Below, piece by piece: positions 6,854-11,207 of a DNA stretch of 64,000 bases. Each line of letters opens with the position of its first letter. The first letter of the stretch is position 1. The stretch comes from Phycisphaerae bacterium. GTDB taxonomy: Bacteria; Planctomycetota; Phycisphaerae; UBA1845; Fen-1342. The notes beneath the pieces are model-generated. The model worked only from the letters and a program-made list of their open reading frames with translations. It searched no databases and was not told where the DNA came from. Where the stretch lies: the NCBI GenBank assembly GCA_050115495.1, contig JASFQK010000002.1:128001-192000 (forward strand). Reading direction: 5' to 3'. Position numbers and translations under genes: made by a program.

Positions 6854-8536
6854 TCATCCCATGCAGCCGGGCTCGAGCTTCTCGAAGAGGATCGCCGGCT
6901 CGGCCAGCGCGTGCCCGGCGGGCAGCGGGGCCGGCACTTCCCAGTGTATCTCGTCGGCGGGCTGCCCGAGCATGCCCAGCAGCCGACGGGCGGCCCCGGG
7001 CATGAACGGGTAGATCATCACGGCCAGGTGTTGCACCGCGTGGATGCAGGTGGCGATGGTGGCAGCGCAAGCCGGCAGATCTTCCTTCCGCGTTCGCCAG
7101 GGCTCTCGGAGACTGAAGTGTTCGTTGCCGAGGCGGGCGTAGCTCATCATCTCTTCGAGGGCGGCCCGGTAGCGGTGCCCCTCGATGTGCGCGCCGACGC
7201 GGGCCAGGGCCTCGCCGCCACGGGCGATATGGGCCCGGTCCTGGTCGGTCTGGGCGTCGGCGGACGGAACGCGGCCTTCGAAGTAGCGGACGGCGAAGGC
7301 CAGCGTGCGGTTGATGAAGTTGCCGAGGGCGGCGACGAGTTCGCTGTTGTTGCGCTGGACGAAATCAGCCGGGTCGAAGGCGGTGCGGGCCGTCTCCGGG
7401 GCGATGGCGGTCAGGTAGTAGCGCAGGGCGTCGGCGTCGAAACGCTTGAGGTACTCCTCGATCCAGACGGGGGAGTCCTCGGGTGTGCGGCTCTTGCTGA
7501 CCTTTTCGTCCTCGCCGCCGAGGCGGAAGTTGACGAAGTTGTTGGCAACGACCGCGTGCGGAAGCTGGTGCCGGCCGTCGGCCATGAGCATCGCCGGCCA
7601 GATCAGGGCGTGAAAGACCGTATTGTCCTCGCCGATGAAGTGCGTGATGTGCGTTTCGGGGTCGCACCACCACTTCTCGTATTCCTGCCAGTTGCCGGCG
7701 GTGTCCTCGCAGAGCTGGGCGGTGAACGAGATGTAGCCGATCGGGGCGTCGAACCAGACGAAGAGCACCTTGCCGGTAGCGTCGGGATCATCGAGCGGGA
7801 CGGGGATGCCCCACGAGATGTCGCGGGTCATGGAGCGCTCGGGCAGTCCCTGCTTGATCTGGCCGAGGGCGAAGTTCAGCACGTGTGGGCGCCACTGGCC
7901 CTGCTTCGATTCGAGCCACTCGCGCAGGGGTTGCTCGAACTTGTGCAGGCTGAGGTGCCAGTGGGTCGTTTCGCGGACGATGGCCGGCACGCCGGTGATC
8001 TGGCTGACCGGTTCGATGAGCAGCAGGGGGTCGATCATCTGCCCGCAGTTGTCGCACTGGTCGCCGGTGGCGCCGGGCGTGCGGCAGTGGTGGCAGGTGC
8101 CGCGGACATAGCGGTCGGGGAGGAAGCGCTCGGCCTGCGGGTCATAGAGCTGCTTGGTGCGGAGCTTGGTGAAGAAGCCCTGCTCGTGGATGCGGCTGAA
8201 GAATTCCTGACTGAACCGCTCGTGCATCTGCTGGTAGCCGGGCTGGTGCGTGCCGCCGTAGACGTCGAACTCGACGCGCAGGCCGGCGAAATCACGAAGC
8301 TGCCGGTCGTGAAATTCGGTGGAGATGTCCTGGGGCTGTCGCTTGGACTTCACGGCGGCGATCTCGATGGCCACGCCGTTGTCATCGCTGCCGCAGATGA
8401 AACGCACCTCGCGGCCACAGGCCCGCAGGTAGCGGACGAAAATGTCGGCCGGCAGGTACGCGCCGGCTATATGGCCGACATGCAGGCGGCCGTTTGAATA
8501 GGGCAATCCCGCCGTTACCAGATATCGACTGGGCAT
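6854..8536 (-). CDS. metG: Methionyl-tRNA synthetase (short form without the C-terminal tRNA-binding domain)
   Basis: LPYSNGRLHVGH (HIGH), CxxC...CxxC zinc knuckle, RDISWGIPVP, VWFDAPIGY and KVSKS (KMSKS). Confidence 0.95.
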   Translation of the reverse strand: MPSRYLVTAGLPYSNGRLHVGHIAGAYLPADIFVRYLRACGREVRFICGSDDNGVAIEIAAVKSKRQPQDISTEFHDRQLRDFAGLRVEFDVYGGTHQPGYQQMHERFSQEFFSRIHEQGFFTKLRTKQLYDPQAERFLPDRYVRGTCHHCRTPGATGDQCDNCGQMIDPLLLIEPVSQITGVPAIVRETTHWHLSLHKFEQPLREWLESKQGQWRPHVLNFALGQIKQGLPERSMTRDISWGIPVPLDDPDATGKVLFVWFDAPIGYISFTAQLCEDTAGNWQEYEKWWCDPETHITHFIGEDNTVFHALIWPAMLMADGRHQLPHAVVANNFVNFRLGGEDEKVSKSRTPEDSPVWIEEYLKRFDADALRYYLTAIAPETARTAFDPADFVQRNNSELVAALGNFINRTLAFAVRYFEGRVPSADAQTDQDRAHIARGGEALARVGAHIEGHRYRAALEEMMSYARLGNEHFSLREPWRTRKEDLPACAATIATCIHAVQHLAVMIYPFMPGAARRLLGMLGQPADEIHWEVPAPLPAGHALAEPAILFEKLEPGCMG

Positions 8537-8640
8537 CGCTCGCCTCACTCCTGGGGAGAAACTGCTGCGCGGATGGTACGCACCGTGGCGGCGGTCTGCA
8601 ATGCGGTCGGACCGCGAGGCCGGTCGGTGTCGTGTGCACC

Positions 8641-8695
8641 AAGAAAAAGGAGCGCGTCAATCCACTACCCGGTGGGGTCGTGGGTTCACGCGCTC
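8641..8695 (-). terminator. Long-stem intrinsic terminator, micropeptide unit 1
   Basis: GAGCGCGT...ACGCGCTC stem followed by CTTTTTCTT on the minus strand. Confidence 0.7.
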
Positions 8696-8752
8696 GGGGC
8701 AGCCGCCGGGAGGCGGCGCCCCCGCGAATTCCGGTTCGCCAGCAGGTGACTG

Positions 8753-8863
8753 CTAGGCGATGAGGTCGGTGCTACCCGACAGGTACCACCAGATGACGAC
8801 GGCGCCAACGGCGATCCAAACCCAGGACCACCATCCGCTGAAGATCGGCAATTCGTTAATCAT
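8753..8863 (-). CDS. Trp-rich transmembrane micropeptide 1 (36 aa, MINELPIFSGWWSWVWIAVGAVVIWWYLSGSTDLIA)
   Basis: SD GGAGG 6 nt before ATG; single hydrophobic helix; paralogous to peptides 2 and 3. Confidence 0.75.
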   Translation of the reverse strand: MINELPIFSGWWSWVWIAVGAVVIWWYLSGSTDLIA

Positions 8864-8977
8864 CACATTCCTCCATTGAATGCGAAGCCACTCGCCCGAG
8901 CCCGCCCACCGCAGGCGGGATCGGCGGCAGCAGGGCTCCGTGCCGCACGCGGCACCACGGTGCATCCTGCGCTAAAC

Positions 8978-9006
8978 ATGGTACGCGACGGGCGACAGCG
9001 CGCCAA
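8978..9006 (-). promoter_or_regulatory. Sigma70-like promoter, unit 1
   Basis: TTGGCG-17 nt-TACCAT followed by GTTTAG. Confidence 0.5.
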
Positions 9007-9033
9007 CGCCGCGGCGGCGGGCGGGGCCGGGTG

Positions 9034-9088
9034 AAGAAAAAAGGCACGCGCCGATTCGCCGTCAGGCGACGGCTGATCGACGCGTACC
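9034..9088 (-). terminator. Long-stem intrinsic terminator, unit 2
   Basis: GGTACGCGTCGAT...ATCGGCGCGTGCC followed by TTTTTTCTT. Confidence 0.7.
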
Positions 9089-9129
9089 GTCGGCGCCGCC
9101 GAAGCGGCGCGATGCTCGTTCGGCTGGCT

Positions 9130-9216
9130 TTACAGGAGGTTCTGCCCGGTGAGCAGGAACCACACCACCACGATGCCGCCGACAACCACGAGCCACCACC
9201 ACCAGTTGCTGAACAT
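9130..9216 (-). CDS. Trp-rich transmembrane micropeptide 2 (28 aa, MFSNWWWWLVVVGGIVVVWFLLTGQNLL)
   Basis: Translated by hand (below the ORF-track cutoff); SD GGGAG 7 nt before ATG; TAA stop. Confidence 0.75.
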   Translation of the reverse strand: MFSNWWWWLVVVGGIVVVWFLLTGQNLL

Positions 9217-9374
9217 CGAAACACTCCCTGCAATCTTGTACCACTCGCCTCGGCCCCCGCCGCGCTGACGGGGTAACACCGAGCCGCGATTCACGATGAG
9301 ATAGAACACCGGACGTGCCGGCGGAGCCGCGAACGACCCACATTCGGGCAGGCCGGCCGCCGATTCGCCAGAAA

Positions 9375-9403
9375 ATATTACCCAACCGGCAAAGAACGTG
9401 CAA
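9375..9403 (-). promoter_or_regulatory. Sigma70-like promoter, unit 2
   Basis: TTGCAC-17 nt-TAATAT. Confidence 0.5.
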
Positions 9404-9454
9404 TGGGTGGAAGGCCGGCAAGGTTACCGCCCGGGGGCGTGCCCCGCGGGGGCC

Positions 9455-9502
9455 AAAAAGGACGCGTCGAGCAATTGCCCACTGGCAGTTGATCGACGCG
9501 TC
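9455..9502 (-). terminator. Long-stem intrinsic terminator, unit 3
   Basis: Perfect 10-bp outer stem GACGCGTCGA/TCGACGCGTC followed by CTTTTT. Confidence 0.75.
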
Positions 9503-9550
9503 GGGTGTTCGCGCCGCAGGAGCGGCGCGACGCCAGGTCAGGATGCGGCA

Positions 9551-9631
9551 CTAGGCAGCGAGCAGCCAGTAGGCCACGAGGAAAATGCCGCCGAAAATCA
9601 ACCACATCCACCAGTTGCCGAAGAAATCCAT
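9551..9631 (-). CDS. Trp-rich transmembrane micropeptide 3 (26 aa, MDFFGNWWMWLIFGGIFLVAYWLLAA)
   Basis: Translated by hand; SD GGAG(AGAG) before ATG; shares F-[SG]-[NG]-W-W-x-W with peptides 1 and 2. Confidence 0.75.
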   Translation of the reverse strand: MDFFGNWWMWLIFGGIFLVAYWLLAA

Positions 9632-9710
9632 GTTCTCTCTCCAAACATGTAACGAACCACTCGCTCCGGTCCCGCCGCGCCGACGGGTCTAACCTCGGCG
9701 ATTACTAAAC

Positions 9711-9739
9711 ACGCTAGTCACGCAGAGCCTCGCCGTCAA
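9711..9739 (-). promoter_or_regulatory. Sigma70-like promoter, unit 3
   Basis: TTGACG-17 nt-TAGCGT followed by GTTTAG (same downstream hexamer as unit 1). Confidence 0.55.
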
Positions 9740-9771
9740 CAGGTCGAGGCCACAAACTGCGCGCGCCTCCC

Positions 9772-9835
9772 AAAAAGAGAGCCCCGTCCGGCGATTAGCG
9801 CCTCCGGCCAATTCGCCGGAGTGTCGAGACGGGGC
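9772..9835 (-). terminator. Long-stem intrinsic terminator, unit 4
   Basis: GCCCCGTC...GACGGGGC stem with an inner CCGGCGA/TCGCCGG stem, followed by TCTCTTTTT. Confidence 0.65.
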
Positions 9836-9924
9836 ACCGTCAAGTGCCACCCGCGCGTTCCGCGGGGGGCTACCTGACGGACCTTGACTGGCGCGACACT
9901 TGTCGTCGCGCTTCGACGGTTGCT

Positions 9925-10005
9925 TTAGAAGAACGCGTTGTACGCCCACACGCCGGTGAACGCCGCGACCGCCGCAACCAAGAAATCAACGAACCAAGTC
10001 CACAT
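9925..10005 (-). CDS. Aromatic-rich transmembrane micropeptide 4 (26 aa, MWTWFVDFLVAAVAAFTGVWAYNAFF)
   Basis: SD AGGAG 7 nt before ATG; same leader hairpin and terminator layout as units 1-3; more divergent sequence. Confidence 0.7.
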   Translation of the reverse strand: MWTWFVDFLVAAVAAFTGVWAYNAFF

Positions 10006-10292
10006 CGTGTCTCTCCTGTGCAGATCTGATTCGTGTCCGTCCTGCCGCGCCGACAGGTCGACCCGGACACAGTTGCTATCATTTACGCTACTTACGAGAA
10101 TGTCGTCAAGGACTGCGCCCCCTTGTTTTTCGTATATTCTGGAGCTTGTTGGACCGCGGTTTGCTACGTCCCGCCGGCAGTCGCGACCCTTTTCTCCCTC
10201 GCGCATCGGCCCGCAGCCGGTCGCCAGGGCCGTTTTGCAGCGCCCGCCGTGCGGCGACCACGTAACCCGCTCCGCCCGCACCGGAGACCCAT

Positions 10293-11207
10293 ATGCCCGA
10301 AGAAAGACGGAAACTCGTCATCGGCGTCGGCGAACTGCTCTGGGACTGTTTTCCCGATTGGCGCCGCCCAGGCGGGGCTCCGGCGAACGTGGCCTTCCAC
10401 GCCAGCCAGCTCGGTCTGGCCGGGGCGATTTGTTCCGGCGTGGGTACGGACGCCGGCGGTGACGAACTCGTCCGCTACGTCGGCGAACGCGGTCTGGACA
10501 CGCGCTGGATCCAGCGCGACCCGCATCATCCCACTGGCACGGTCACCGTCGACACGACGCGGCCCGAGCACCCGACGTACGTGATCCACGAAAACGTGGC
10601 CTGGGACTTCCTGCAATTCGACGAGCCGTCGGCCGAGCTGTTTGCCGCCGCCGCCGTCGTCTGCTACGGCACGCTCGCCCAACGCTGCGCTGCGAGCCGG
10701 GAGACGATTCGGCGGGCGCTGACGGCGGCGGAGCAGGCGCTGCGCGTGTACGACGTGAACCTGCGCCCACCATGGTACACCGCGGAGATCGTCGCCGAGT
10801 CGCTGCGTCTCGCGCACGTCGTGAAGCTCAACGCGGATGAGGTGGGGGAACTAGGCAGACTGCTCTCATTGCCGGCGGATCCGCCGGAGGGATTTGCCGC
10901 TGCGCTAAGGGAGCGCTACGGCGTGCGGCTGGTGTGCGTTACGCGCGGGGGACGCGGGTGTCTGCTGCTGTCGGAGACGGAACGGGTGGACGTAGCGGGC
11001 AGGCCGGTGGAGGTTGTGGACGCGGTCGGTGCCGGGGACGCGTTCACCGCCGCCCTGAGCTACGGGCTCGTGCAGGGTTGGCCGGTAGCGCGGGCGGCGC
11101 ACCTGGCGAACGAGGTCGGCGCGCTCGTGGCGGGACAAGCCGGTGCGATGCCGGTGCTGGGCGAGGCGCTGGCGGATGCGTTGCGGCGGTGTGCTCCTGG
11201 TACGTAG
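10293..11207 (+). CDS. PfkB-family carbohydrate kinase (fructokinase-like)
   Basis: GELLWD, GGAPANVA, DVNLRPP and DAVGAGDAF signatures. Confidence 0.9.
   Translation: MPEERRKLVIGVGELLWDCFPDWRRPGGAPANVAFHASQLGLAGAICSGVGTDAGGDELVRYVGERGLDTRWIQRDPHHPTGTVTVDTTRPEHPTYVIHENVAWDFLQFDEPSAELFAAAAVVCYGTLAQRCAASRETIRRALTAAEQALRVYDVNLRPPWYTAEIVAESLRLAHVVKLNADEVGELGRLLSLPADPPEGFAAALRERYGVRLVCVTRGGRGCLLLSETERVDVAGRPVEVVDAVGAGDAFTAALSYGLVQGWPVARAAHLANEVGALVAGQAGAMPVLGEALADALRRCAPGT

Follow-up and report, generated by a model that had tools for sequence, protein, structure and literature searches.

A structured leader RNA tied to the start codons of small hydrophobic peptide genes in one family of uncultured Planctomycetota

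The window analysed here, a stretch of 64,000 nucleotides (nt) from a Phycisphaerae bacterium (GenBank assembly GCA_050115495.1, contig JASFQK010000002.1, positions 128,001 to 192,000), carries on its minus strand four tandem small genes, called units 4, 3, 2 and 1 in mRNA order, each with its own Shine-Dalgarno (SD) sequence and its own terminator made of a hairpin and a U run. They encode hydrophobic peptides of 26, 26, 28 and 36 amino acids (aa), respectively, and upstream of each a first-pass annotation, made from the sequence alone, had noticed a hairpin at a fixed distance from the ATG. What is this hairpin, and what does it do for the small genes that share it? Reading of the minus strand confirmed all four hairpins where they had been placed, and the double change from C-G to U-A that distinguishes the hairpin of unit 4 from that of unit 3 can be seen in the sequence. 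The spacing is near-fixed as claimed, with 37 nt between the end of the hairpin and the ATG in unit 1, 38 in unit 2, 39 in unit 3 and 35 in unit 4. The hairpin proved to be the tip of a longer rod. On the mRNA strand this rod forms an RNA structure under selection; it keeps a fixed distance to the start codon and is retained while the peptide encoded behind it diverges beyond recognition.

A selected RNA structure in the leader

The rod consists of the helices P1 and P2, a bulge on the 5' side, and the conserved hairpin, P3, at its tip. It is about 45 nt long (38-51 nt in the four window units). In an alignment of 41 matches, 40 of them distinct, aligned to a covariance model (alignment A4), P1 is typically UUCGU/GCGAG and P2 typically UGCGGC/GCCGAA; the bulge usually holds 4-6 variable nt (range 2-7) with 0-1 nt opposite, and the consensus of P3 is CCCGYCG-GCG-CGGCGGG. 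The conserved letters are those of the P3 stem and loop, and the one internal loop varies in both sequence and length. The tip CGGCGCGGC is present in 40 of 43 distinct copies, beside a bulge and outer arms that vary. Changes within the P3 stem are few and mostly double; C-G has given way to U-A in seven instances, spread over three pairs. Although real, the outer helix is irregular and shows bulges, G·A mismatches and shifts of register. An invariant sequence had also been described beside the hairpins of units 1-3, and a regular-expression search over the genome did find GCGAGTGG at 8888-8895, 9241-9248 and 9657-9664. The invariance of GCGAGUGG in these three units therefore stands, but it is not a free box: most of it is the 3' strand of the outer helix, in which GCGA pairs with an upstream UCGY. 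A variant P3, GCAACCGUCGGCGCGGCGGUUGC, was seen in the third cassette of a congener, genome G005 (L030 1165-1370), which has no separate P2 and bulge; the core is retained, CCC/GGG is replaced by AACC/GGUU, and the ATG of MFFGNNWWHW... follows after 35 nt.

The folding energies of the four window leaders taken singly are no better than those of shuffled sequences (z -0.01 to -1.52), which is expected because the DNA is 67% G+C. Since single folds are uninformative at this composition, the case rests on comparative data. The four window copies are paralogues, and their own similarity proves little. Across the 5.97-Mb genome, the hairpin together with GCGAGTGG was found at only 3 places, and the strict form of the hairpin in units 2-4 alone. 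When the array was compared by blastn with 60 relatives, the hairpin region itself was matched in many genera, and the homologous loci carry the same 17-mer 33-39 nt before small hydrophobic open reading frames (ORFs). A covariance model with the three-helix structure, R1, was built from 18 homologous leaders; on its own genome it gave 4 matches with E values from 1.2e-12 to 8.1e-6, the next best having an E value of 0.035.

In A4, 81.4% of the cells are paired, as against 32.6-52.8% when the partners are slid along each other; 15 of the 20 pairs have changed on both sides, and none of 500 shuffles reached the observed values on four of the five measures used. As A4 had been fitted to the model, an alignment-free test was added on 39 copies (four were dropped, having been missed by the P3 pattern), in which the 24 nt before P3 were paired with the 16 nt after it. 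A copy's own flanks pair at a mean of -15.4 kcal/mol, compared with -12.3 kcal/mol when the partner is taken from another copy, and none of 10000 permutations was as good. The suggestion that a variable outer stem encloses the hairpin is thus borne out by covariation of the outer helices in the larger family alignment. Whole leaders were also folded, from the predicted transcription start (+1) to codon 11, and in these minimum free energy (MFE) folds P3 forms in 35 of 43; in 25 the nested rod reaches 15 bp or more, the longest having 23 bp. Over all pairs of the rod there are 113 G·U or U·G cells and 26 A·C or C·A cells, and the wobble pair of P3 appears as U·G (27 copies) or C-G (13), with no instance of U-A. 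Because G·U pairs far exceed A·C pairs, the structure is RNA, and it is formed on the mRNA strand.

The cassette, its peptides and its distribution

Cassette features were counted on the 43 distinct full-length copies from the family. All 43 have a GGAG within 20 nt of the start codon and an ORF of 26-56 aa, and in 40 the start codon lies 34-43 nt after P3, the remaining three having gaps of 27, 31 and 62 nt. Each peptide has a single hydrophobic stretch, and at least two classes without obvious similarity to one another can be told apart. Class A is Trp-rich at the N-terminus, e.g. MWSNWWWW...GG...LTGQNLL; in class B a polar N-terminus is followed by one helix and the C-terminal sequence W(R)FFxGGxD. 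No peptide of either class reached a Pfam or NCBIfam cut-off, and a look-up in the ESM Atlas returned nothing. When close pairs were compared, the differences were mostly synonymous third-position changes in two of five (5 of 6 and 4 of 5 changes), whereas in the other three pairs residues are replaced freely. This pattern suggests ORFs that are translated yet evolve fast. Tryptophan runs such as NWWWW, SWWSW and GGGWWTW, followed by the hydrophobic helix, open class A peptides at 9130-9216, 9551-9631 and 8753-8863 of the window and at L028, L029, L030, L053 and other loci.

The rod sits in a self-contained cassette, in the order predicted sigma-70-type promoter, rod, strong SD, one-helix hydrophobic ORF and intrinsic terminator. 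The terminator arms ACGCGTCGATC...GATCGACGCGT with a T run are common to 16 of the 43 cassettes, and therefore the 3' end is conserved like the 5' leader, while the ORF between them diverges. Terminators with the shared arms were noted at 9455-9502, 9035-9086 and 8643-8695 of the window and at loci L028, L034, L042, L045, L046, L051, L053 and L056. At the other end, TTGAC(G/A) stands 20-27 nt before the start of the model in 36 of 43 copies, with a -10-like hexamer about 17 nt further on, which would put +1 about 3-7 nt before the rod in these copies and the motif inside the transcript, as the first-pass annotation had supposed. For units 1 and 2, promoter-like sites are found further upstream. 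A stricter consensus scanner for promoters and terminators reported none of the sites read by eye in the window. The probability that the SD is unpaired averages 0.47 over the 43 leaders, without consistent sequestration, and the rod is not followed by a U run.

Contigs from a wetland metatranscriptome library match the window at 100% identity over 9195-9353, which includes the unit 2 leader, and over 9531-9986, which starts within the unit 4 ORF, crosses the terminator of that unit and takes in all of unit 3. The latter contig, provided that it represents RNA, would mean that the terminator of unit 4 is read through. The former reaches 9353, so that the rod of unit 2 would be internal to its leader, and a third contig holds the motif of a relative followed by GGAG and ATG. 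The contigs cover units 2-4 and not the flanks, and the uncovered parts prove nothing. As a sign of expression they are a weak hint, showing neither ends nor strand.

In 10 of the 19 loci compared, 18 besides the window, metG (6854-8548 in the window) has the cassette as its immediate upstream neighbour on the same strand; on the other side of the metG-linked cassette stands a gene for a GT2 glycosyltransferase or a SAM methyltransferase. In all five motif-less genomes of the family that were examined, the 800 nt before metG contain no such ORF. Motif and peptide gene therefore come and go together.

R1 matched 39 of 72 genomes of the family at E <= 0.01 (33 at E <= 1e-5), covering 24 of its 40 genera; the matched genomes have 1-4 copies each, which often stand in tandem. 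A search of the order matched 17 of 32 family genomes again; genomes of other families were matched in 15 of 118 cases, merely at 23.7-32.1 bits, and samples of 150 other genomes each from the class and the phylum yielded 4 and 3 matches, none above 32.5 bits. These seven all lie within long open frames and were taken as chance. The matches of the order search in other families were likewise taken as chance: of 12 places fetched, 11 were full-length, nine of which had no ORF under the filter, L084 and L086 having a non-hydrophobic one. No promoter, SD or small hydrophobic ORF accompanied the weak out-of-family matches inspected. An exact-pattern scan of 185,579 species genomes, one per species, found 15 loci; 12 are in metagenome-assembled genomes (MAGs) of Planctomycetota (labelled Planctomycetota, Planctomycetales, Phycisphaerales or Phycisphaerae) that duplicate family genomes already known. 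The other three, in an Actinomycetes MAG, a 3-kb contig binned as Methylorubrum, and Hyphomicrobium, score 21.8-24.2 bits, are partial or lack an ORF, and were rejected. Two of the family records are themselves labelled Phycisphaerae or Phycisphaerales. Among the genomes searched, the motif is confined to one family of uncultured Planctomycetota.

Rfam 15 was searched with 8000-10800 of the window at E <= 10, and the best match was rydB with 20 bits against a gathering score of 50 (E 0.32), a weak match that falls on the terminator hairpin of unit 4; with 16 homologous loci at E <= 1, only tRNA was found. The Rfam search and the larger alignment alike support the view of a cis-regulatory RNA motif outside the known families. 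We found no description of the motif in the full-text literature searched, nor in those parts of PMC2864571 and PMC11109978 that a look-up of terms reaches. Judged from sequence and predicted structure, this uncatalogued RNA forms a new family, though of a familiar kind. With about 43 distinct copies in 24 genera of one uncultured family it is a well-supported structured RNA, and it marks genes for tiny membrane peptides that are too short for routine annotation to call reliably. Leader RNAs that stay constant while the peptide turns over are rare, and they point to regulation of a class of products and not of one gene. The covariance model offers a handle on micropeptide genes in metagenomes, and the rod a defined RNA bait for whatever reads it.

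Candidate roles of the tip

The outer helices are free to covary and the sequence of the tip is constant; a sequence-specific reader of the tip is therefore proposed. At a confidence somewhat short of even, we favour a role for the tip as the recognition site of a putative sequence-specific trans-acting factor, which may set translation initiation, the lifetime of the short mRNA, or both. From the functions listed by the first-pass annotation (a binding site for a protein or a small RNA, a processing or stability element, or a ribosome standby site) we infer a binding site, with a protein as the most likely reader. The stretch of mRNA covered by the 30S subunit has its upstream edge about 24 nt before the AUG, and the 3' foot of the rod, also about 24 nt before the AUG, would stand at this edge. 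A factor bound to the tip might then help or hinder binding of the 30S subunit, or set the life of the mRNA; the whole rod would, in addition, protect the 5' end. The operator of thrS and the leaders of ribosomal-protein genes are comparable, with a hairpin at about -24 to -60 of the AUG, at the edge of the 30S site, and sequence-specific conservation. The present rod differs from the thrS operator in that its loop is GGCGC, without CAU and without mimicry of a tRNA anticodon even though metG adjoins, and from both systems in that one element serves several unrelated small genes and its regulator is putative. It is also conceivable, if very doubtful, that the tip is an address label on the mRNA, recruiting a dedicated and perhaps membrane-bound RNA-binding factor, by which peptides too short for co-translational capture by the signal recognition particle (SRP) would be made at the membrane. 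Such a label would explain how unrelated one-helix peptides come to have a common leader, set at a fixed distance before the start codon; the one-sided internal loop may bear a loose resemblance to the SRP RNA hairpin.

Several points weigh against a factor that reads the tip through such a rod. RNAalifold, when unaided, recovers P3 only, so that the outer helix rests on a structure set by us, an alignment fitted to the model, and folds of single sequences; in A4, helix 1 is paired in only 68.5% of its cells. The predicted accessibility of the SD is middling and inconsistent, and no switch is visible. In 7 of the 43 copies, units 1 and 2 of the window included, the rod is not near the predicted 5' end. 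The RNA-library contigs may be contaminating DNA, since a DNA run gives equally patchy cover. In addition, a very stable invariant hairpin could persist for other reasons, as an RNase site, a DNA site or a result of gene conversion.

The hairpin in the 5' untranslated region (UTR) of ompA blocks decay that depends on the 5' end, and the rod might do the same as a passive stabiliser whose sequence is not read. Its stability is high, whole leaders having folding energies of -30 to -57 kcal/mol, and it is predicted to begin about 3-7 nt after +1 in 36 of 43 copies. A consensus -35, and GGAG in 43/43, give the cassettes the look of genes made for high expression. The likeness to ompA is a stable stem-loop predicted to lie a few nt from the 5' end, on an mRNA that encodes an envelope protein and is apparently highly expressed. 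Yet shape alone leaves unexplained a tip (CGGCGCGGC in 40/43) that is near-invariant across 24 genera beside arms that covary, and the spacing is kept more strictly to the AUG (40/43) than to the promoter (36/43), the rod being internal to the leader in units 1 and 2; we hold a merely passive role to be unlikely. Cleavage by RNase III, which would mature or destroy the mRNA by cutting a coaxial stack of about 20 bp, could account for the nested rods of 15-23 bp, about two helical turns, in 25 of 43 leaders, and for a one-sided internal loop at a fixed position. Nevertheless, the nested helix is shorter than 15 bp in 10 of the 35 leaders that form P3, and the invariant sequence of the tip is not tied to known RNase III determinants, which leaves this explanation improbable.

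A leader of the type I toxin kind, in which the rod or its loop would be the target of an RNA antitoxin or a folding element for toxic peptides, seems to us less probable again. The mRNAs of hok, tisB, ibs and ldr resemble the present ones in small hydrophobic peptides, tandem and patchy occurrence, and UTRs more conserved than the ORF. Here too the peptides are shorter than 60 aa with one hydrophobic helix, the copies are tandem (4 in the window, 2-3 elsewhere), only 39 of 72 genomes have them, and the whole cassette is absent upstream of metG in 5/5 motif-less relatives examined. However, no antisense TTGAC-N17-20 -10-like site was found in the 43 cassettes, a search that leaves other promoter types and trans-encoded RNAs uncovered; the SD is of consensus strength, exposed and not consistently sequestered, and the promoter seems a strong one; synteny upstream of metG is kept in 10 of 19 loci; and a hok-like pairing of the 5' and 3' UTRs is unsupported (mean z -0.17). 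A riboswitch, in which the rod would have a small molecule or an ion as its ligand and gate expression of the peptide, is most improbable. Its model would be the Downstream-peptide motif, which we take to be Rfam RF01704 and which later work has reportedly assigned to glutamine sensing (glutamine-II riboswitch). As far as the text consulted goes, this motif is the closest known kind, a conserved structured leader placed directly before short, non-conserved ORFs in cyanobacteria (Weinberg et al. 2010, PMC2864571), which is the pattern seen here. In contrast to it, the present rod is single, has an invariant GC-rich tip and no conserved loop letters, belongs to one family of Planctomycetota, precedes hydrophobic one-helix peptides, and is not matched by the family model. 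Moreover, the sole internal loop differs between copies in both length and sequence, the conserved letters belong to a Watson-Crick stem, no alternative fold was seen that would pair with the SD or a terminator, and Rfam has no match. Equally improbable is a DNA operator, an imperfect palindrome bound by a DNA-binding regulator just downstream of the promoter. P3 is indeed palindromic at 13 of 17 DNA positions, at about +25 to +45 of the predicted transcripts; but a DNA site would not account for a P3 wobble pair that is U·G or C-G and never U-A (27, 13 and 0 copies), for 113 G·U against 26 A·C cells, for outer helices that covary without keeping their sequence, or for a spacing kept to the AUG and not to the promoter. 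A candidate cis-regulatory RNA from Planctomycetes, the Rhodopirellula-1 motif, is listed without an Rfam accession in the table of PMC2864571, and its alignment in the supplement cross-references the Transposase-resistance motif; by that supplement alignment it is unrelated in sequence and is not the present element.

Other arrangements were tried and rejected. P3 contains CGGCGCG, complementary to CGCG(U/C)CG in hairpins of the 3' UTR, which would allow a fold-back of the hok type. The duplex energies of P3 with its own 3' UTR do not improve on those with dinucleotide shuffles (mean z -0.17, with 3 of 43 below -2), and the complementary word is as common on the reverse complement (18 versus 19 of 43), because it lies within palindromic terminator arms. 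A pyrimidine run before P3 was considered as an anti-SD; it does not recur consistently among the copies, and no systematic lowering of SD accessibility was seen. An attenuation leader of the Trp type for metG was set aside, as class B has no W runs, about 20 hydrophobic codons follow, and the neighbour encodes MetRS and is not a trp gene; so was a tRNA-mimic operator for MetRS, the loop being without CAU.

The four units of the array

All features that follow are on the minus strand of the window. The rod of unit 4, seen in the sequence and in the MFE fold, occupies 10033..10070 and is matched by the covariance model at 44.1 bits (E 1.8e-8). Its outer stem, GUGUCCG (10070-10064) with CGGACAC (10039-10033), had been pointed out in the first-pass annotation and is present in the MFE fold; a 6-nt bulge on the 5' side leads to P3, CCUGUC-GGCGC-GGCAGG (10057-10041). 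The SD AGGAG (10017-10013) and the ORF MWTWFVDFLVAAVAAFTGVWAYNAFF together span 9925..10017, with the ATG at 10005 and the stop codon included to 9925. A promoter-like site read by eye at 10081..10109 consists of TTGACG (10109-10104), an 18-nt spacer and TAAAT (10085-10081) and would start the RNA a few nt ahead of the rod; the intrinsic terminator, CCCCGUC...GACGGGG with a U run, lies at 9774..9835.

The rod of unit 3 (9655..9705) is the best match of the model in the genome, with 58.6 bits and an E value of 1.2e-12. P1 is formed by UCGC (9701-9698) and GCGA (9664-9661), with a weak P2 next to it; P3 is CCCGUC-GGCGC-GGCGGG (9687-9671), and GCGAGUGG lies at 9664-9657. The SD GGAGAGAG and the ORF MDFFGNWWMWLIFGGIFLVAYWLLAA span 9551..9643 with the ATG at 9631. 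A putative promoter at 9711..9739 has TTGACG (9739-9734), a 17-nt spacer and TAGCGT (9716-9711), and the terminator GACGCGUCGAUC...CUCGACGCGUC with a U run is at 9455..9502, its arm sequence recurring in other cassettes.

In unit 2 the rod covers 9241..9290 (MFE fold; model match of 51.4 bits), with UCGC (9289-9286) and GCGA (9248-9245) in P1, CUCGGU (9283-9278) and GCCGAG (9254-9249) in P2, and P3 CCCCGUC-AGCGC-GGCGGGG at 9273-9255. The SD GGGAG and the ORF MFSNWWWWLVVVGGIVVVWFLLTGQNLL extend over 9130..9230 (ATG at 9216), followed by the terminator UACGCGUCGAUC...GGCGCGUG with a U run at 9035..9086. The promoter-like site TTGCAC, 17 nt, TAATAT (9375-9403) is about 100 nt upstream of the hairpin. 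Unit 1 has a divergent copy of the rod at 8887..8931, supported by the MFE fold and a model match of 34.9 bits (E 8.1e-6); its outer strands are GCUGCCGCCGA (8931-8921) and UCGGGCGAGUGGC (8899-8887), and P3, CCCGCC-UGCGGUG-GGCGGG (8919-8901), has a 7-nt loop. The SD GGAGG and the ORF MINELPIFSGWWSWVWIAVGAVVIWWYLSGSTDLIA lie at 8753..8876, with the ATG at 8863, and the terminator GAGCGCGUGAAC...UUGACGCGCUC with a U run lies at 8643..8695, after which metG starts at 8548.

In MFE folds of units 1 and 3, the SD is in the loop of a small hairpin whose stem contains the AUG (8856-8880 and 9620-9645); this arrangement is not general across the 43 leaders. Between stop codon and terminator, the 3' UTR of every unit holds one more GC-rich hairpin, at approximately 9912-9890 in unit 4, 9530-9505 in unit 3, 9112-9090 in unit 2 and 8712-8690 in unit 1. 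That of unit 3 reads CGCGCCGC-UCCU-GCGGCGCG.

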